This document shows, piece by piece, positions 10,715-26,076 of a stretch of DNA of 64,000 bases. Every line of letters begins with the position of its first letter. The first letter of the stretch is position 1. This stretch comes from an uncultured Acidobacteriota bacterium (GTDB lineage: Bacteria > Acidobacteriota > Thermoanaerobaculia > Gp7-AA8): NCBI GenBank assembly GCA_963741955.1, contig CAVUKB010000010.1:96001-160000 (forward strand), written 5' to 3'. The notes under the pieces are model-generated. The model was not told the origin of the DNA and did not search any database. It was given only the letters and a program-made list of their open reading frames with translations. The position numbers and the translations under genes were made by a program.

Positions 10715-10752
10715 GCTCGTCGCTCGTCGCTCGTCGCTCGTCGCTCGTCGCT
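10715..10752. repeat. Heptamer tandem repeat (GCTCGTC)x5
   Basis: Five perfect copies plus a partial copy, directly after the msrA stop codon. Confidence 0.9.
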
Positions 10753-11248
10753 AATCCCTCACATAGTGGCACGTATACCCGTTCGGGTATTTCTGCAGGT
10801 AGTCCTGGTGGTACTCCTCGGCGGGCCAGAATGTCGTGGTCGGCACGATCTCCGTCACGACCGGGCGCCGCCATTTGCCGGACTGATCCACTTCGGACCG
10901 GACGCGCTCCGCCGTCTCCCGCTGAGCTTCGTCATGGTAGAAGATGATCGAGCGGTACTGCGTCCCGATGTCATTTCCCTGGCGGTTCGGGGTGGTCGGG
11001 TCGTGAAGACGGAAGAAGAAGCGGAGGATCTCCTCGTAGCTGATCCTGGACGGATCGAAGACGATCTCGACCGATTCGGCATGGCCGGTGCGGCCGCTCT
11101 TCACGTCCTCGTATCGCGGTTTCTCGAGCGTTCCGCCGGTGTAGCCGACGCTCGTCCGGACCACTCCACCGAGTTTTCGAATCAACTCCTCGACGCCCCA
11201 GAAGCAGCCTCCGGCGAGGGTCGCCGTCTCGAATCCGTTCTCAGGCAT
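10751..11248 (-). CDS. msrA: Peptide-methionine (S)-S-oxide reductase
   Basis: GGCFWG active site, GHAE, DIGTQYRS, AEEYHQDY. Confidence 0.95.
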   Translation of the reverse strand: MPENGFETATLAGGCFWGVEELIRKLGGVVRTSVGYTGGTLEKPRYEDVKSGRTGHAESVEIVFDPSRISYEEILRFFFRLHDPTTPNRQGNDIGTQYRSIIFYHDEAQRETAERVRSEVDQSGKWRRPVVTEIVPTTTFWPAEEYHQDYLQKYPNGYTCHYVRD

Positions 11249-11866
11249 TCACTTCGTCTCCTTCTGCGCGTTCTTCCGGAACAGCGGGAGAAACTCGCCG
11301 TAGCCTTCCGCCTGGAGCTTTTCGACCGGGATGAAGCGCAGCGCCGCGGAGTTCATGCAGTAGCGCATGCCGGTCGGCGCGGGTCCGTCGTTGAAGACAT
11401 GGCCGAGGTGTGAACCGGCGTGCTTCGAGCGAACCTCGGTGCGCACCATGAAGAACTGCCGATCGGTCTTCTCCACGATATTGTCCGGCACCAGAGGCCT
11501 GGTGAAGCTCGGCCAGCCCGTTCCCGACTCGAACTTGTCGAGGGAGCTGAAGAGCGGCTCACCGGAGACGACGTCGACGTAGATGCCGGCTTTGTGGTTG
11601 TCCCAGTACTGGTTGCGGAACGCGGGCTCGGTTCCTCCGTTCTGGGTGACGTCGTACTGAAGCGGCGTCAGCTCTTTCTTCAGCTCGGTTTCGGACGGTT
11701 TGGTGTACTGCGACATGGATGCTCCCTTCGTGCTGGCGGTGTGTACGGCGGCGCTCGACGGATGGGCGCTCTGCGGGCCGCGCTGCCGCGCGGCGGCGAC
11801 GAGCGCCAGAGACACGACAGCCAGGATGGCCACGATCGCCGTGGCCCACGTTCTGCTCTGATTCAC
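11249..11866 (-). CDS. msrB: Peptide-methionine (R)-S-oxide reductase with N-terminal signal/anchor
   Basis: [23 protein letters not shown] start with AGGAGG RBS; alternative ATG at 11716. Confidence 0.94.
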
Positions 11867-12051: not shown

Positions 12052-13920
12052 ATGCAGGCATTCCGTCGATTCGTCGTTTCGTTCGTGATCGTCCTGACCG
12101 CAGGTGCGGTGATGGCGGCGCAGACCGCGCCGATCGATCTCACCGTCGACATGAGCGACATCGGCCAGAAGATCACTCATACGCACATGGTCATCCCGGT
12201 GTCTCCCGGACCGCTCGATCTCTATTATCCGAAGTGGATCCCGGGTGAGCACGGACCGACGGGGCCGATCGTGCAGATGGCGGGACTTCACATCACCGCG
12301 GCCGGAAAAGAACTGGCGTGGAAGCGCGATCTCCTCGAGATGTACGAGATCCACACCGTGGTCCCCGCAGGCGTCGACTCGATCAACGTCGATTTCGATT
12401 TTCTCGCTCCCGCGGGCGGATCGTTCACCGCGGGCGCATCGTCCACGCCGAATCTGGCGATCCTGAGCTGGAACAGCGTGGTCCTCTATCCGGCCGGCCA
12501 CGCCTCGGACGAGATCCTCTTCCACCCTTCACTGATCCTTCCCAGGGGATGGGACTACGCAACCGGGATGGAGACGCGCTCGACGAGCGGTGGAACGATC
12601 CACTTCGAGCCGGTCTCCCTCACCACCCTCATCGACTCGCCGGTTCAGAGCGGGACGATGTTGCGGAAGATCGAGATTCCGGACGGCGCGATCCATCACG
12701 AGATCGACCTGGTTTCCGACAGCCGCTGGGCCGAAGAGACGCCGAAGGATTTCGCGCAGCAGTACGGCAGGTTGGTCGCCGAAGCGAAGGCGCTGTTCGG
12801 AGCGCAGCACTACCGGCATTACAACTGGCTGCTGACGCTCAGCCATCATGTTCAGCACTTCGGTCTCGAACATCACGAATCGAGCGATGACCGGGTCGAC
12901 GAGAATCTGCTGGAGAACGAATCGGGCCGGAACCGGATCGCCGGACTTCTCGCTCACGAGTACGTCCATTCGTGGAACGGTAAGTATCGCCCGCCGGCCG
13001 GACTCGCGGTCTCGAACTACGACAAGCCGATGACGGACGAGCTCCTGTGGGTCTATGAGGGATTGACTACGTATCTCGGCAATCTTCTTCCGGCGCGCGC
13101 CGGACTCTGGACTCAGGAGTATTACCGCGAATCAGTGGCCGAGATCGCATCGAGCCTGAGCACGGCAACGGGACGTCAGTGGCGACCTCTGGCCGATACC
13201 GCGGTGGAAGCGCAGATCCTCTACGAATCGCCGCGCTCGTGGGGAACGTACCGCCGCGGCGTCGACTTCTATGACGAAGGTCTCATGGTCTGGCTCGACG
13301 CAGACATGACCATCCGGCGCCTGACCAATGGCCGGAAGTCTCTGGACGACTACCTCCATCTCTTCTACGGCGGCGAGAGCGGACATCCGGCGTTGAAGCC
13401 GTACACGTTCGACGACGTGGTGAATGCGATGAATCAGGTTGTGCCGTACGACTGGAAGAACTTTTTCCTCACGCGGCTGCAGTCGAAGGAGCCGCTGGCG
13501 CCGATGGGGGGCATCACCGGCGGAGGGTGGAAGCTCGTCTACAACGAAGAGCCGAACGCAGCGATCAAGGCGCGCGAGCATGACGGGAACCGGGATCTGA
13601 CCACCTCGATCGGCCTGTACCTCGGGAAGGACGGCCGCATCAGCGACGTGATCCGTTCGAGCGCGGCGTGGAAGGCGGGACTCGCTCCGGGAATGGACGT
13701 GGTGGCGGTGAACGGCCGGAAGTACAAGCCCGAAGTGATCGAGCACGTCGTCCGGGATTCGAAGAGCAGCAGCGCGCCGGTCACGCTTCTGATCGACGAC
13801 GACGGAGTCTTCAGGACGTACACAGTCGACTATCACGGCGGCCTGAGGTATCCGCATCTGGTGCGGGAGGAAGGAAAACCCGACCTCCTCAGCAAGCTTC
13901 TCCAGCCGCTGGCGAAGTAG
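12052..13920 (+). CDS. M61 family metallo-aminopeptidase with PDZ domain, exported
   Basis: Signal peptide, PKWIPG, GLEH, HEYVHSWNGK zinc motif, LWVYEG, C-terminal PDZ-like AGLAPG..VAVNG. Confidence 0.9.
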   Translation: MQAFRRFVVSFVIVLTAGAVMAAQTAPIDLTVDMSDIGQKITHTHMVIPVSPGPLDLYYPKWIPGEHGPTGPIVQMAGLHITAAGKELAWKRDLLEMYEIHTVVPAGVDSINVDFDFLAPAGGSFTAGASSTPNLAILSWNSVVLYPAGHASDEILFHPSLILPRGWDYATGMETRSTSGGTIHFEPVSLTTLIDSPVQSGTMLRKIEIPDGAIHHEIDLVSDSRWAEETPKDFAQQYGRLVAEAKALFGAQHYRHYNWLLTLSHHVQHFGLEHHESSDDRVDENLLENESGRNRIAGLLAHEYVHSWNGKYRPPAGLAVSNYDKPMTDELLWVYEGLTTYLGNLLPARAGLWTQEYYRESVAEIASSLSTATGRQWRPLADTAVEAQILYESPRSWGTYRRGVDFYDEGLMVWLDADMTIRRLTNGRKSLDDYLHLFYGGESGHPALKPYTFDDVVNAMNQVVPYDWKNFFLTRLQSKEPLAPMGGITGGGWKLVYNEEPNAAIKAREHDGNRDLTTSIGLYLGKDGRISDVIRSSAAWKAGLAPGMDVVAVNGRKYKPEVIEHVVRDSKSSSAPVTLLIDDDGVFRTYTVDYHGGLRYPHLVREEGKPDLLSKLLQPLAK

Positions 13921-14134: not shown

Positions 14135-15484
14135 TCAGGAGCCGGAGGTTCCCGCGGTCGTCTTCAGATCTTCGAGCCTTTTCTTCAGCGCCGCGATCGT
14201 CCGCTTCGATCGTTGCTCCTCCGGGAGTGCTTCCGCTTCGGCGATCGCCGTTTCGAGCGCGGTACGTGCGCCAGCATCATCGCCGTTGCCGATCAGTGCC
14301 TCGATCTTCGTACGCCAGATGCCGAGGCGTCGAGGCCCGTAGGCGAGAGAGAGCGCACGGCCGGCAGCGGCGATTGCATCGTCATACTTCTTCATCTCGA
14401 GGTAAGTCAGGGCGAGACGCGCCGGCGGGTTGTAGTCGCCCGGGAAATCGCGCTGCGACTCTTCGAGCATCGGGATCGCTCGCTCTGGCTGACCGAGCTC
14501 GAAATACGCGCTGAGCCGGTGCGAGTCGAACACCGTGCGGGCCTCGGGGCTCTTTGCCGTCGCCGCTTCGTGATCCAGGAACGCGGACCACTCCTCGGTG
14601 AGCTCGTGCTTCCCTTCCTCGTCTCCGGCCGCCTCGCGTGCGGCGATCAGCTCCTGATAGAGCCCGGACCGGTCGTCCGCTTCGGGATGAAGCTGCTTGT
14701 CGGCCATTACCGCACGGGCGTCGATCTCGAGTTGCGCGCGCAGCTCGGAGCGGAAGTGATTCGAGTCGGGGAGGTTGATCGCACAATCGAGCCCCGTCGC
14801 GGCGACATTCAGCGCAGAGGATGAGTGGCGCAGACGGCGGAACGCATCACGTGCCGTCGTCGCACACTGGTCGTACTCGCCCGTCCCCTGCAGCGCGAAC
14901 AGAAGCGACTCGGTGACCCGTCCGCGCGGCCTCCACGCTGCCGGAGCGTCCTCGAGCAGCGCGGCATACGCCTTCGCGGCGCCGGCGTTGTCGCCGGATC
15001 CATAGAGGGTGTCGGCCACGGAGAGTTTCTTTGCGAGAAGATCCTGCTTCGGATTCACGGCGCGCAATCCGTCGTCGAGGATCTTCGCCAGCTGCGGCGC
15101 CGTCGCGCCTCCCAGCCAGCGGAGGACGACCTTTTCACTTCGCGGGTCGACCACGTAGAACGTCGGGTAGCCTTCGAGCGCGAACTTCTTCCTCAGCGCC
15201 GCGTTGGACTCTTTTTCACCATCGATCGCGAGCCAGACGAACCGTCCGGCATACCGCTCGAGAGACGCGTCGGTGAAGACGAACGCCTCCATGGAGCGGC
15301 ACGTGTGTCACCAGGGGGCCCAGGCTTCGACGAAGAGTGGAGCGTTCTTCGCCTTCGCCTGGGCCAGTGCCCGTGCGTAGTCATCGTGGATGAAAGGAAG
15401 CAAGTGGCTCTTCGTGGTCGCGCCGAGAGCGGCGGTCGAGAGAAGAGCGCCCACGATTCCCGCGAGGATCAGAGACCGTTTCAT
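14135..15484 (-). CDS. Exported thioredoxin-fold/TPR protein with in-frame UGA at the first Cys of CxxC (candidate selenoprotein)
   Basis: Track ORFs 15308-15535 and 14135-15292 are one frame: MKRSLILAGIVG...LFVEAWAPW-TGA-HTCRSMEAFVF...GYPTFYVV, then TPR-like helices. TGA at 15308-15310. Confidence 0.85.
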
Positions 15485-21105: not shown

Positions 21106-24100
21106 ATGAGTCAGACGAAGACAATCGGATCCGTTCTCGTGGTTGGAGGAGGCGTCGCAGGGATGCAGGCGGCTCTCGATCTGGCCGACTCGGGGTACAA
21201 GGTCTATCTGGCCGATCGCGAGAGCAGTATCGGCGGAACGATGGCGCAGCTCGACAAGACGTTCCCGTCGAACGACTGCGCGATGTGCATCCTCGCTCCG
21301 CGCCTGGTCTCGGCGGGACGTCACCTCAACATCGAGATTCTCCCGAGCACCGAGGTGCTGGGGGTGGAGGGAGAGGCGGGGAGATTCCGAGCGACGCTGC
21401 ACCGGCGCGGGATCTACATCGACGCATCGAAGTGCACCGGATGCGGCGAGTGCAGCCAGGTCTGCCCGGTCGATCTTCCGAACGAATTCAACTTCGGTCT
21501 CGGAACCCGCAAAGCGATCTCGCGCCGGTATCCGCAGGCGGTTCCGGCGAATTACACCATCACCAAACGTGAGCGGCCACCCTGCCAGACCGCGTGCGCC
21601 GCGGGAACGAACGTCCAGGGATACATCGCTCTCACTGCTCAGGGAAAATTCAAGGAAGCGCTCGACGTCGTACGCGAGCGGATGCCGTTCGCGTCGGTCT
21701 GCGGGCGCATCTGCCTTCACCGCTGCGAGAACGAATGCAACCGGAATCTGGTCGACGAGCCCGTCGCCATCATGCAGGTCAAGCGGTTTCTCGCCGACTG
21801 GGATTACGAGCAGGGGAATCCTCTTCCGCCTCCGGTTCCGAAGACCAGGACGGCGCGGATCGCGGTGATCGGCGGCGGACCTGCGGGGCTGGCGTGTGCG
21901 CACGACCTCGCGAAGGACGGATATCCGGTGACCCTGTTCGAATCGAGCGACGAGCTCGGCGGAATGCTCCGCTCGTGCATTCCGGAGTTCCGGCTTCCCG
22001 AAGCTCACCTCGAGCGCGACATCGAATTCCTTCTCTCGCCCGGCGTGGACGTGGTGCTGCGGAAATCCCTCGGGAGAGACTTCACCATCGAAGATCTCGA
22101 GAAGGAAGGATACCGAGCGGTCTTTCTCGCCACCGGGGCGTACAAGCCGAAGAAGCTTCCGATTCCCGGACACGATCTCGAGGGGATCAGCCTGAACATC
22201 GAGTTCCTCGAAGCGGTCCGCGCCGGTGAGCACGTCGATCCTGGCCGGCGGGTCCTGGTGATCGGCGGCGGTAACGTGGCGATCGACGTCGCACGTTCAG
22301 TACGACGACTCGGCGTCTCCAGCGTGACCATGGCCTGTCTCGAGAGCCGCGAGGCCATGCCCGCGCATTCGTGGGAAGTTCAGCAGGCGCTCGACGAAGG
22401 GATCGAGATTCTCAACGACGTCACCCTCAAGCGTTTCGTGGGCGAGAGAGGACACGTTCGTGGCGTCGAAGCGCGGCGTATCCGCGATCTGTCGTTCGAC
22501 GCGGAGGGGCGGATTCACCTCACCGAGGTTTCGGAGAGCGATTTCGCGATCGACGCGGACCGGATCATCGTGGCGATCGGGCAGACTCCTGAGCTGAGCT
22601 ATCTCGACTCGAGGAGCGGGGCGGTGCAGGTGAGCCGTCGCGGGCTGATCGAAGTCGATCCGGACACGCTCGCCACCAGACGTCCGGGAGTCTTCGCGGG
22701 TGGTGACGTGGTCGCCGAGCAGCCGGGGATCCGGATCTTCGCGGGTGGCGACGTGGTGACCGGAACGGCGTTCGTGGTCGACGCGGTCGCAGCCGGGCAT
22801 CGCGCCGCCGAGTCGATCGACCGCTACGTGGAAGGTCTTCCGTTCGCGGGGCCGAGACCGAAACCGAAGCCGTACAAGCTCACCCCCGAGGCCGTGGAAA
22901 AGAAGCTCCATGACGGCGAGATCCGGAAGAGCGTCCGGGCGATCGCGCCCGAAGCCGCTCCGGCAGCACGGGTCGCGAGCTTCGACGAGATTCAGGAAGG
23001 GTTCACCGAGGCGATGGCGGTCGCGGAAGCGAAACGCTGCCTTTCGTGCGGCCTCTGTTCGGAATGCCTCCAGTGCGTCGAGGTCTGTCAGGCGCATGCG
23101 ATCCGGCACGACTTTCCCCGCGACGAATACCGGACCATCGACGTCGGCGCGGTCATCCTCGCTCCGGGTCTCTCGGCGTTCGACCCGACCGAGAAGGGAG
23201 AGTACGGCTACAACCGCTATCCCAACGTCGTCACCAGCGTCGAATTCGAGCGCATCCTCAGCCCTTCCGGTCCTTTCGGCGGAAAGGTGCAACGTCCCTC
23301 GGATGGAAAGGCACCGAAGAAGATCGCATTCATCCAGTGCGTCGGATCACGCGAAGTCGGCCGCGACTACTGCTCGTCGGTCTGCTGCATGTACACCGCG
23401 AAACAGGCGGTGATCGCGAAGGAACATCAGCCGGGACTGGAGACCACGGTCTTTTACATCGATCTCCGTGCGGTGGCGAAGGGGTTCGAAGCGTACATCG
23501 ACCGGGCGAAGAGCGAAGGAGTGAGGTACGTCCGGTGCCGTCCGTCTGCGGTGACACACCTCCCGCAGAGTGGAGATCTGGTCGTCGAGTATGCAGACGA
23601 AGAAGGGCAGCATCGCGAGATGTTCGACATGGTCGTTCTCGCAGTCGCGCTCACTTCGTCGCCCGATCGGAGACAGCTCGCGCAGGCCGCGGGTATCCCG
23701 GTCAATGAGTATGGATTCGCGAGATCGATCGCCTTCGACCCGGAATCGACCAGCCGTTCCGGCGTCTTCGTCTGCGGGCCGTTCGTCGATCCGATGGACA
23801 TCCCGGAAACGGTGGCTGGCGCGAGCGCGGCGGCGGCGAAGGCGATGGCGCTCCTCGCCGACAGCCGGGGAACGCTGGTCCGGCCGAAGACCTATCCGCC
23901 GGAGAAGGATGTGACAGGGGAAGAGCCGCGCGCCGGTGTCTTCGTGTGCCACTGCGGGACGAACATCGCCGGCGTCGTCGACGTCGAAAAAGTGGTCGAC
24001 TATGCGAAGACTCTCCCGGGAGTGGTCCATGCGGAGCGTAACCTCTACACCTGTTCGGACGACACGCAGAAGCGGATCCGGGAAAAGATCGACGAGCTGA

Positions 24101-25608
24101 ATCTGAATCGGATCGTGGTCGCCTCCTGCACGCCGCGAACGCACGAAGCACTTTTCCGCGACACCATCCGCGAAGCGGGTCTGAACGAGTACTACTTCGA
24201 ATTGGCGAACATTCGCGACCAATGCTCCTGGGTCCACAAGAACCGGAAGGAGCAGGCGACGGAAAAGGCGAAGGATCTGGTGCGGATGGCTCTGGCCAAG
24301 GTGCGTCTCGACGAGCCGCTCCACAAGCGGCCTCTCGCCGTCACCCAGGCCGCGCTGGTCCTCGGCGGCGGAGTGAGCGGCCTCTCCGCCGCGCTCTCGC
24401 TCGCTGATCAGGGCTTTCAGGTTTTTCTGGTCGAGAAGGAACGGGACCTCGGCGGATATGCGAAAGAGCGTCGTTACCCGCTGACCGGCGAGGACACCCG
24501 GATGCGCCTGTGGGAGATGATGGCCCGGGCGCGCACGCATCCGAACATCCAGCTCATGCTGGGATCGACTCTCCAGAAGGTGGATGGCTCGCTCGGCAAC
24601 TTCAAGTCGACCATCGCTACGGATGGCTTCGAGCGCGAGATCGCACATGGCGTGGTGATCGTCGCGACCGGCGCAGAACGGTACGTGCCGAATCAGTACC
24701 TGTTCGGCGAAGATCCACGAGTGGTCCGCCTCTTCGAATTCGAAGAGATGATGGCCGACCACAAGGTCGACACCGATTCGGTGGTGTTCATCCAGTGTGT
24801 CGGTTCGCGGAACGAAGAGCATCCATGGTGCAGCCGCACCTGCTGCATGGAGTCGGTGAAGAACGCTCTGCGCGTGAAGCAGCAGAACCCCGGTGCCGAA
24901 GTCTCAGTGCTCTATCGCGACATCCGCACGTACGGGTACCGCGAGCTCTACTACCGGCAGGCGCGCGAGCGCGGAGTGCGATTCATTCGATTCGACGAAG
25001 CGCATCCGCCGCGGGTGGTCGCGGAGAACGGATCGCTTCGAGTGACGGTGCTGGATCAGATGACACGCCGTGAAGTGGACCTCGATGCGAAGGCGGTCGT
25101 TCTCGCGGCGGCGACGCTTCCGAATCGCGGTAACAAGGACATCGGTCAGATTCTGAAGGTCCCGCTGAGTGAGGACGGATTCTTTCTCGAGGCGCACCGG
25201 AAACTCCGCCCGGTCGATTTCGCGACGGACGGCATCTTTCTCTGCGGCGCCGCGCATTCGCCGGTGGGTTTGCGTGAGGCGGTCTCGCAGGCCGCCGCAA
25301 CCGCGTCGCGAGCGGCGACGATCCTCTCGAAGAGCGTGATCGACCTCGAGCCGACGATCTCTCAGGTGGTGAAAGAACGATGCGACGGTTGTGCGTACTG
25401 CGTCGATCCCTGCCCCTTCCACGCCATCACGCTGGTCGAGTACAGCGAGAACGGCGATACGAAGAAGCGCGTGGAAGTGGACGAAGCGGTCTGCAAGGGG
25501 TGTGGAACATGCGAGGCGACCTGTCCGAAGGGAGCGATCTTCGTGTGGCATTTCCGCCCCGAGCAATTGATGGCACAGGTCCACGCCGCACTCGATATCG
25601 CGGGGTGA
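21106..25608 (+). CDS. hdrA: Large HdrA-family flavoprotein (HdrL type: HdrA with GltD/NfnB-like NAD(P)H module plus second HdrA module)
   Basis: GGTMAQLDKTFPSNDCAMC; PCQTAC...CGRIC, IGGGPAG and GGGNVAID in the insert; two FIQCVGSR motifs; GVFVCHCGTNI; terminal ferredoxin motifs. Confidence 0.92.
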   Translation: MSQTKTIGSVLVVGGGVAGMQAALDLADSGYKVYLADRESSIGGTMAQLDKTFPSNDCAMCILAPRLVSAGRHLNIEILPSTEVLGVEGEAGRFRATLHRRGIYIDASKCTGCGECSQVCPVDLPNEFNFGLGTRKAISRRYPQAVPANYTITKRERPPCQTACAAGTNVQGYIALTAQGKFKEALDVVRERMPFASVCGRICLHRCENECNRNLVDEPVAIMQVKRFLADWDYEQGNPLPPPVPKTRTARIAVIGGGPAGLACAHDLAKDGYPVTLFESSDELGGMLRSCIPEFRLPEAHLERDIEFLLSPGVDVVLRKSLGRDFTIEDLEKEGYRAVFLATGAYKPKKLPIPGHDLEGISLNIEFLEAVRAGEHVDPGRRVLVIGGGNVAIDVARSVRRLGVSSVTMACLESREAMPAHSWEVQQALDEGIEILNDVTLKRFVGERGHVRGVEARRIRDLSFDAEGRIHLTEVSESDFAIDADRIIVAIGQTPELSYLDSRSGAVQVSRRGLIEVDPDTLATRRPGVFAGGDVVAEQPGIRIFAGGDVVTGTAFVVDAVAAGHRAAESIDRYVEGLPFAGPRPKPKPYKLTPEAVEKKLHDGEIRKSVRAIAPEAAPAARVASFDEIQEGFTEAMAVAEAKRCLSCGLCSECLQCVEVCQAHAIRHDFPRDEYRTIDVGAVILAPGLSAFDPTEKGEYGYNRYPNVVTSVEFERILSPSGPFGGKVQRPSDGKAPKKIAFIQCVGSREVGRDYCSSVCCMYTAKQAVIAKEHQPGLETTVFYIDLRAVAKGFEAYIDRAKSEGVRYVRCRPSAVTHLPQSGDLVVEYADEEGQHREMFDMVVLAVALTSSPDRRQLAQAAGIPVNEYGFARSIAFDPESTSRSGVFVCGPFVDPMDIPETVAGASAAAAKAMALLADSRGTLVRPKTYPPEKDVTGEEPRAGVFVCHCGTNIAGVVDVEKVVDYAKTLPGVVHAERNLYTCSDDTQKRIREKIDELNLNRIVVASCTPRTHEALFRDTIREAGLNEYYFELANIRDQCSWVHKNRKEQATEKAKDLVRMALAKVRLDEPLHKRPLAVTQAALVLGGGVSGLSAALSLADQGFQVFLVEKERDLGGYAKERRYPLTGEDTRMRLWEMMARARTHPNIQLMLGSTLQKVDGSLGNFKSTIATDGFEREIAHGVVIVATGAERYVPNQYLFGEDPRVVRLFEFEEMMADHKVDTDSVVFIQCVGSRNEEHPWCSRTCCMESVKNALRVKQQNPGAEVSVLYRDIRTYGYRELYYRQARERGVRFIRFDEAHPPRVVAENGSLRVTVLDQMTRREVDLDAKAVVLAAATLPNRGNKDIGQILKVPLSEDGFFLEAHRKLRPVDFATDGIFLCGAAHSPVGLREAVSQAAATASRAATILSKSVIDLEPTISQVVKERCDGCAYCVDPCPFHAITLVEYSENGDTKKRVEVDEAVCKGCGTCEATCPKGAIFVWHFRPEQLMAQVHAALDIAG

Positions 25609-25611
25609 GCG

Positions 25612-26076
25612 ATGAGTGAAATGGTGAACGAGATGACAGGCAGCGAACCGGCGAGTGCGTCGACAGTGGAGGCATTCGAGCCGTTGATCATCACCTTCTG
25701 CTGTTACTGGTGCGCCTACGCAGGTGCTGATCTTGCCGGCACGTCGCGGTTCCAGTATCCGCCCAACATCCGGATCATCCGCGTGCAGTGCAGCGGGATG
25801 GTGCACCCGAATCTGGTGATCGAAGCGCTGACCAAAGGCGCGGATGGAGTGCTGATGCTCGGATGTCATCCGGGCGACTGCCATTACCTCGAAGGTAACT
25901 TCCGAGCCCGTTCGCGGGCGGAGGCGATCGACCTGATGCTCGAAGACTTCGGTCTGGAGCCGGAGCGATTCCGCCTCGAATGGGTCTCGGCTTCGGAAGG
26001 GTCGCGATTCGCACAAGTGGTGACCGATATGGTCGAGCAGATCAGGCAGCTCGGCCCCAGTCCGTATCGCACATAG
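25612..26076 (+). CDS. mvhD: [2Fe-2S] hydrogenase delta subunit
   Basis: FCCYWCAYAGAD, RVQCSG, GCHPGDCHY, WVSASEG. Confidence 0.95.
   Translation: MSEMVNEMTGSEPASASTVEAFEPLIITFCCYWCAYAGADLAGTSRFQYPPNIRIIRVQCSGMVHPNLVIEALTKGADGVLMLGCHPGDCHYLEGNFRARSRAEAIDLMLEDFGLEPERFRLEWVSASEGSRFAQVVTDMVEQIRQLGPSPYRT

Follow-up and report, generated by a model that had tools for sequence, protein, structure and literature searches.

Results

One frame interrupted by an in-frame TGA

The locus at positions 14135–15484 (minus strand) of the window, that is, of the whole stretch of 64,000 nucleotides that was analyzed, raises the question of whether two open reading frames form a single selenoprotein gene and, if so, which RNA signal has its UGA read as selenocysteine (Sec). 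The original prediction held that the two frames are one, interrupted by a TGA at the cysteine of a thioredoxin motif, and translation gave the same result: the minus-strand frame from 15484 to 14135 is 449 codons long and is interrupted by one stop only. This stop, the predicted Sec codon, is a TGA at codon 59 (15308–15310, minus strand) in the context FVEAWAPW*HTCRSM, and it occupies the first position of the thioredoxin CxxC motif (WAPW-U-HTC). Gene calling with table 11 yielded only a downstream ORF of 385 amino acids, starting at Met65 (15292). Among the 120 database protein matches, 24 begin at a Met six codons past the site, as a split TGA gene would, and the remaining 96 are full-length and carry CHxC. 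Taking all lines of evidence together, it is quite probable that the locus is one intact gene of 449 amino acids, that its UGA is read as selenocysteine (Sec59), that the product is an exported UxxC oxidoreductase with a thioredoxin domain and TPR-like repeats (Trx-TPR), and that, of two hairpins behind the UGA, the distal one (H2) recruits SelB and the proximal one (H1) brings H2 near.

Codon 59 was compared in 76 distinct orthologous genes (77 rows, 76 after removal of one duplicate: 30 best loci from relatives and 46 from a scan of a genome collection). The homologues with Cys or TGA that had been suggested as a check were both found: 33 genes, the one studied here included, carry TGA, 43 carry TGC or TGT, and none carries TAA or TAG, a 33:43 ratio that should not be read as a population frequency, the patterns of the genome-collection scan favouring Cys. 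One of the TGA rows (L034), as well as one SelD locus, comes from the unpublished genome G042, without which the 33 become 32. Cys62 is present in all 76 genes. Since the column is either TGA or Cys and never TAA or TAG, codon 59 is very likely selenocysteine. A tree of 70 rows, built by a quick method with the hairpin codons kept and with one duplicate and six short rows omitted, requires nine Sec/Cys changes.

A nonsense pseudogene or a sequencing error would account for the stop itself and for nothing more. The identical TGA in 32 further genes, at 42–53% protein identity and in an otherwise open frame free of TAA and TAG, argues against both, and so do the contigs of one public DNA run, in which the letters of codon 59 are the same; the chance that either applies is practically negligible. 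The confirmation of the TGA in raw reads, as originally proposed, was thus obtained in part: the contigs of this run agree, but they are contigs and not reads, and the run is possibly the window's own source sample. A sigma-70-like promoter was sought for the Trx-TPR gene and none was found, and the search of public sequencing runs listed no RNA run for the sequence.

Selenocysteine machinery and other selenoprotein genes

The Sec machinery, whose presence had been named as a further check, was found complete. The genome (99.1% complete) gave one match over the cut-off for each of selA, selB and selD, the last with a TGA of its own in UACK, together with a tRNA-Sec(UCA) at 69.5 bits; a second RF01852 match over the cut-off is a tRNA-Ser. 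The tRNA-Sec (L015, G000:C5:1340597-1340694) has a 7-bp acceptor stem, with an A-A juxtaposition in place of the eighth pair. In each of the 33 other genomes where a TGA-bearing match turned up, selA was matched as well (in one only partially; in G012 and G013 the TGA position was unread), and the six of the 76 genomes that lack selA all carry the Cys form. The co-occurrence of selA and TGA discriminates weakly, because 37 of the 43 Cys-form genomes also have selA.

Systems with tRNA-ReC are associated with an extra selC*-type tRNA and with an extra selB or cysS. A single selB, a single cysS and a single true tRNA-Sec were seen in this 99% complete genome, as searched with no dedicated tRNA-ReC model, and TGG is absent from column 59 in the 76 genes. 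Decoding of the UGA as Cys via SelC*/tRNA-ReC, or as Trp by leaky read-through, is therefore very improbable, even though every orthologue without TGA has Cys at this column and UGA decoding as Cys with a SECIS is described for tRNA-ReC systems in the available part of PMC13582414. The original fallback that the UGA is read as Cys is accordingly left without the second selB, cysS or selC-like gene. By contrast, a probably exported Trx-TPR selenoprotein split by gene callers, as first proposed, agrees with the Sec machinery, with the TGA/Cys exchange and with the protein matches starting downstream. Judged from these sequence comparisons, selenocysteine is very likely inserted at UGA codon 59.

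A genome-wide read-through scan returned 445 candidates, mostly ordinary stops, from which eight besides the Trx-TPR gene were chosen by motif and by eye. The genome has at least nine selenoprotein genes, the list being incomplete. The read-through candidate C4:242036 was not supported as a selenoprotein gene. Seven of the other TGA genes belong to known selenoprotein kinds, namely SelD, a protein disulfide oxidoreductase, a BCP-type peroxiredoxin, a PrdB/GrdB-like protein, two rhodaneses and an ArsC/Spx-like protein (L133–L138 and L010; G000 C5:561704, C5:578319, C5:101589, C5:527280, C1:496292, C7:147896 and C7:622998). They carry ordinary proximal SECIS, with 5-nt G-loops at 16–28 nt from the UGA, and three of these loops (GGUCC, GGUUC and GGUCG) are nearly identical to the loop of H2. 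The SelD genes of relatives retain the proximal hairpin.

A distal hairpin as the candidate SECIS

The bSECIS model comprises a loop of 3–9 nt with a G in its first two positions, a stem of 4–16 bp, an MFE of −7.5 or lower and a spacing of 16–37 nt (PMC13188914, in the part available). Two hairpins follow the UGA of the Trx-TPR gene. The first, H1 (15251–15303, minus strand; +5 to +57 after the UGA), has its arms at 15302–15294 and 15259–15251, just where the original prediction had placed them, and it folds well, at −30.6 to −31.2 kcal/mol with z −3.4 to −4.9 and none of 200 shuffles matching, although over a longer stretch of 121 nt z is only −1.7. Its apical loop, UUCACC, lacks the canonical G, as had already been cautioned, and fails the G rule of the model. 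The second hairpin, H2 (15232–15250, minus strand; +58 to +76), has seven base pairs and a GGUUC loop at 15243–15239, 64 nt after the UGA. With an energy of −10.6 kcal/mol, H2 agrees with the loop, stem and energy rules, and the sole rule that it fails is the spacing of 16–37 nt.

The conservation of H2 differs sharply between TGA and Cys genes. All seven pairs are formed in 33/33 TGA genes, and two of them are formed in only 14/43 and 17/43 Cys genes. The synonymous positions +60 and +72 are fixed in 33/33 TGA genes, compared with 0.56 and 0.64 in Cys genes, and the G of the loop at +66, which is the third base of its codon, is found in 33/33 against 23/43. At the pair that closes the loop, 23 genes have G-C and 6 have A-U, and stem covariation is nearly nil, with one change from A-U to G-U. 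The H2 motif was found once in the genome. The exact motif occurs in 2/37 Cys rows, one of them from a genus in which the two remaining members carry TGA; its occurrence in 33/33 TGA genes holds by construction, because the motif was defined on these genes, and the weight of the test rests on the Cys counts, on a loose G-loop rule and on the peroxiredoxin sets described below. By the loose rule a distal hairpin is present in 33/33 TGA genes and 12/43 Cys genes, against 3.8% of random sites, and a proximal one, at 14–37 nt, in 0/76 genes. On the 70-row tree, H2 goes with TGA in 7.7 out of 9 independent pairs, with no pair showing the opposite (sign test, p about 0.008).

These observations bear on the original proposal that the long hairpin adjoining the UGA is the SECIS, which was not upheld: the G-bearing hairpin that fits the consensus is the next one downstream. 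If Sec were inserted through H1, either by its G-less loop or by an alternative fold whose GUUC loop lies 23 nt past the UGA, the SECIS would sit at the usual distance, and H1 is indeed more stable in TGA genes (mean energy −27.5 vs. −15.9 kcal/mol in Cys genes), its stability tracking TGA in 7.3 of 9 independent pairs of the same tree. The alternative local hairpin is possible in this gene at −6.4 kcal/mol, and some bacterial SECIS deviate from the model (PMC13188914, in the part available). However, the apical stem of H1 is fixed by the invariant codons of Val69 and Asp72 and forms equally in Cys genes, and its loop, which has no G, is variable. For the alternative fold a G at +24 is needed, which only 7/33 TGA genes have, and the pair probability of this fold in the ensemble is 0.0. 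A SECIS in H1 also leaves the invariance of H2 unaccounted for. Both forms were rejected on the loop without G, the +24 G in 7/33 genes and the ensemble probability of 0.0, and this alternative is considered improbable. H2, on its conservation and on the match of its loop to the other SECIS of the genome, is with high probability the SelB-binding SECIS, with domain 4 of SelB as its predicted binder.

Three Cys-form genes retain H2: L025 (G046), L076 and L099. H1 is also kept in L025 and L076, and in L099 the H2 stem is kept and the loop G is lost. By sequence these three look like recent Sec-to-Cys reversions. In another locus, L041 (G015:C30:1825-4410), a tandem pair of diverged Trx-TPR copies was observed, each with a TGA and H2.

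The same layout in a peroxiredoxin gene

A second gene of the genome, encoding a Sec-peroxiredoxin of the AhpC/TSA family with a TxxU motif (TPV-U) (L132:734-1228, equal to G000:C10:264233-264727; minus strand), has an in-frame TGA and two hairpins in the same arrangement: a long proximal hairpin is followed immediately by a 7-bp hairpin whose GGUCC loop lies 59 nt after the UGA. The orthologues were collected in two sets (30 + 20 genome loci, and 80 metagenome loci with 6 duplicates dropped) that may overlap and include kin, so that the genes counted are non-independent. By one fixed rule, the distal loop was present in 38/39 TGA genes and 2/11 Cys genes from genomes, and in 60/62 and 0/12, respectively, from metagenomes. 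The same rule found a proximal loop in 1/39 and 2/62 TGA genes. In the metagenome genes the stem pair +55:+69 covaries, being G-C in 42, A-U in 18 and G-U in 2, and a C-G/G-C swap was seen in L146 and L160. A Val codon dictates the G of the distal loop. The loop of the proximal hairpin starts with GA and lies at 27 nt, and, to go by its sequence, this hairpin might itself be bound by SelB.

Two further observations were made on these gene families. In the genome studied, the first hairpin ends in E-R-Y codons in both the Trx-TPR and the peroxiredoxin gene. In one relative, 2.2 kb separate a Sec-peroxiredoxin gene from a Trx-TPR gene of the same strand (G025:C153:13166-17208).

A distal SECIS is thus likely in the Trx-TPR gene and likely to recur in a second family. 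That the two represent a second general class of bacterial SECIS, formed by a G-loop hairpin about 60 nt from the UGA and an abutting spacer hairpin and found in two or more unrelated families of the thioredoxin fold, appears somewhat more probable than the contrary. If this is true, the distal class arose in at least two unrelated families, and the 16–37 nt rule hides selenoprotein genes from SECIS-based predictors.

How H1 could bring H2 within reach of SelB

The 9–11 nt after the codon are held single-stranded on the ribosome, and looping was computed with the first 9–11 nt forced single-stranded to mimic this. In the proposed mechanism, the ribosome at the UGA would melt only the base of H1, and the rest would stay folded, looping out about 40 nt; the path from the UGA to the base of H2 would shrink from 57 nt to about 15–19 nt, and SelB-GTP-Sec-tRNA would bind the GGUUC loop of H2. 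The SECIS would lie in the stretch that encodes the following strand (A-G-R/Q-F-V-W-L), likely owing to a coding constraint, as the helix behind the active site gives no room for a G-loop hairpin in the usual place.

With 9–11 nt masked, the median path from the UGA to the base of H2 was 15–19 nt in TGA genes and 30–32 nt in Cys genes, and the mean probability of looping out was 0.91–1.0 and 0.5–0.6, respectively. In this folding model, the shortened path together with the 7-bp stem places the H2 loop within the normal range; a structural model requires about 13 nt between codon and loop (PMC4605307, in the part available). When 13 nt were masked, or 11 nt with more downstream RNA, the H1 of the gene itself partly refolded and the path came to 29–31 nt, and a single truncated fold with long context gave the middle pairs of H1 a probability of 0.02 and H2 still 0.98. 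As looping weakens with 13 nt masked or, in this gene, with longer downstream RNA, the role of H1 as a distance-shortening spacer is put forward, on the modelled folds, as rather likely and no more firmly than that.

Alternatively, H2 might be the SECIS while H1 makes the ribosome pause or shields the UGA from RF2, SelB reaching H2 by flexible looping. The lower stem of H1 begins 5–7 nt after the UGA, at a point where the ribosome has to open it, the predicted persistence of H1 varies with the masked length, and the WHD2–WHD3 hinge of SelB is said to adapt to differences in length (PMC4605307, in the part available). Against this stand the difference in looping-out probability between TGA and Cys genes with 9–11 nt masked, and the fact that the distal hairpin abuts the 3' end of the proximal one in both the Trx-TPR and the peroxiredoxin families. 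This pause or shield role is held to be unlikely, and the spacer role of H1 is preferred.

Predicted protein and gene neighbourhood

The signal peptide and TPR-like repeats that had been noticed at the outset were both recovered. The N-terminus has a basic start and a hydrophobic stretch (mean hydropathy 2.6 over residues 6–14) and looks signal-like; a Sec-pathway signal peptide is predicted from sequence and hydropathy at residues about 1–21 (15422–15484, minus strand), with its cleavage site placed by eye. A hydropathy scan found a hydrophobic N-terminal window in 92/97 full-length sequences. The thioredoxin-fold domain, delimited by Pfam, alignment and fold, spans residues about 31–143 (15056–15394, minus strand) and contains U59-H-T-C62 and the invariant Pro107. 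Over the cut-offs, Pfam gave Thioredoxin_7, Thioredoxin and Thioredoxin_2 at residues 33–136 (the cut-offs of PF00085, PF13098 and PF13899 being passed) and TPR_19 and TPR_14 near residues 323–377, the TPR matches as a whole lying near 323–381. The TPR-like domain of helical repeats, delimited in the same way and by Foldseek, covers residues about 149–446 (14147–15040, minus strand) with 16 predicted helices, and has invariant motifs near 270–273, 320, 348–356 and 382–385.

AlphaFold2, run with an alignment of 91 rows, predicted a thioredoxin fold followed by 16 helices (pLDDT 94, pTM 0.89). Alignment and predicted structure thus have the features of a thioredoxin: the fold, (U/C)xxC at a helix start and the invariant P107. 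Foldseek with the predicted model matched TPR superhelices and, weakly, YbbN (TM 0.21). The PDB sequence search gave matches to the thioredoxin domain only, the best being 2kuc, and in the ESM Atlas the clusters nearest to a Cys homologue were unnamed thioredoxin/TPR families with no function.

In thioredoxin chemistry the first residue of CxxC acts as the nucleophile, so Sec59 and Cys62 would swap disulfides after export. Sec59 would be the nucleophile and Cys62 the resolving thiol, and disulfides would be exchanged with envelope proteins bound by the TPR groove. The clustering of invariant TPR residues suggests, from the alignment, a specific bound partner. Export and an oxidoreductase role are probable for the predicted protein.

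When the 76 loci were clustered by their neighbours (antisense shadow frames excluded), no conserved neighbour hinting at the substrate was found; the largest cluster held 15/76 loci, with a crude ORF filter that admitted spurious frames. Upstream of the Trx-TPR gene in the window there is an ABC-type gene. Just downstream, at 10751–11866 (minus) and 12052–13920 (plus), msrA, an msrB extended at its N-terminus by a hydrophobic stretch, and a convergent M61 peptidase were observed. Further along, at 21106–26076, a 1500-aa Fe-S flavoprotein is followed by a 154-aa protein, both without an in-frame TGA; we take these two to resemble HdrA-like proteins and MvhD. The HdrA-like and MvhD families are frequently selenoproteins.

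Comparison with known systems

The literature search returned no distal or two-hairpin bacterial SECIS and no Trx-TPR selenoprotein, the primary spacing papers and the supplements lying outside it. The available parts of PMC12013277, PMC13582414, PMC7026636, PMC4605307, PMC8129009 and bioRxiv 2022.07.06.499078 describe no distal two-hairpin bacterial SECIS, and atypical SECIS are acknowledged in several of them. In a 2026 inventory of 119 families, UxxC thioredoxins (PF00085) and the thiol:disulfide interchange protein (PF13098) are listed in Table 1, which holds no TPR fusion, and 'TPR' appears 0 times in its main text (PMC13188914, in the part available). The Trx-TPR protein shares with these two entries the thioredoxin fold, Sec as the first residue of CxxC and Cys homologues, and differs from them by a signal peptide and a TPR-like domain of 300 residues, the PF13098 entry being compared by its description.

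None of the 13 NCBIfam families matched by the protein reached its cut-off. Trx7/PDZ (NF041199) and TsoB (NF045694) are selenoprotein families too, in which a related thioredoxin domain is joined to a domain of another kind, but they score 19.7 and 30.5 bits against cut-offs of 300 and 805, and their listed motifs are CxxU and UxxxxU, with no TPR. CnoX/YbbN (PDB 3QOU) also combines an N-terminal thioredoxin domain with a C-terminal TPR domain (PMC8129009, in the part available), some Trx-TPR homologues bear the YbbN COG name, and the Foldseek E-value is 3e-5. Nevertheless, the TM-score on the query is 0.21, the lengths are about 285 and 449 residues, and CnoX is cytoplasmic and acts with GroEL/DnaK, whereas for the Trx-TPR protein a signal peptide and Sec are predicted. 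Membership in CnoX/YbbN was rejected on the TM-score and on the hydrophobic N-terminus in 92/97 sequences. By these comparisons the protein is very likely a selenoprotein, of a new architecture within a well-known kind; taken alone, it is one more thioredoxin-type selenoprotein, of an uncatalogued architecture that databases truncate, and the greater surprise lies in the RNA signal.

An in-frame SECIS normally restricts the residues just after Sec in recombinant selenoproteins. If the distal layout is true, it lets the SECIS move out of the active-site codons in selenoprotein engineering, and it matters for the prediction of genes, the design of recombinant selenoproteins and the distance that SelB can cover on the ribosome. 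A subset of bacterial selenoprotein genes has no SECIS that fits the model (PMC13188914, in the part available), and for such genes the layout described here in two families, with the SECIS placed distally after a spacer hairpin, offers a concrete and testable account. Compared with the canonical bSECIS of the E. coli fdhF type, H2 has the same kind of 5-nt loop with G at positions 1–2, a 7-bp stem and an energy below −7.5 kcal/mol, and it fits N1-G-[G/U]-N-N2 with N1–N2 pairing; it differs in that its loop lies 64 nt from the UGA, with a separate long hairpin in between.
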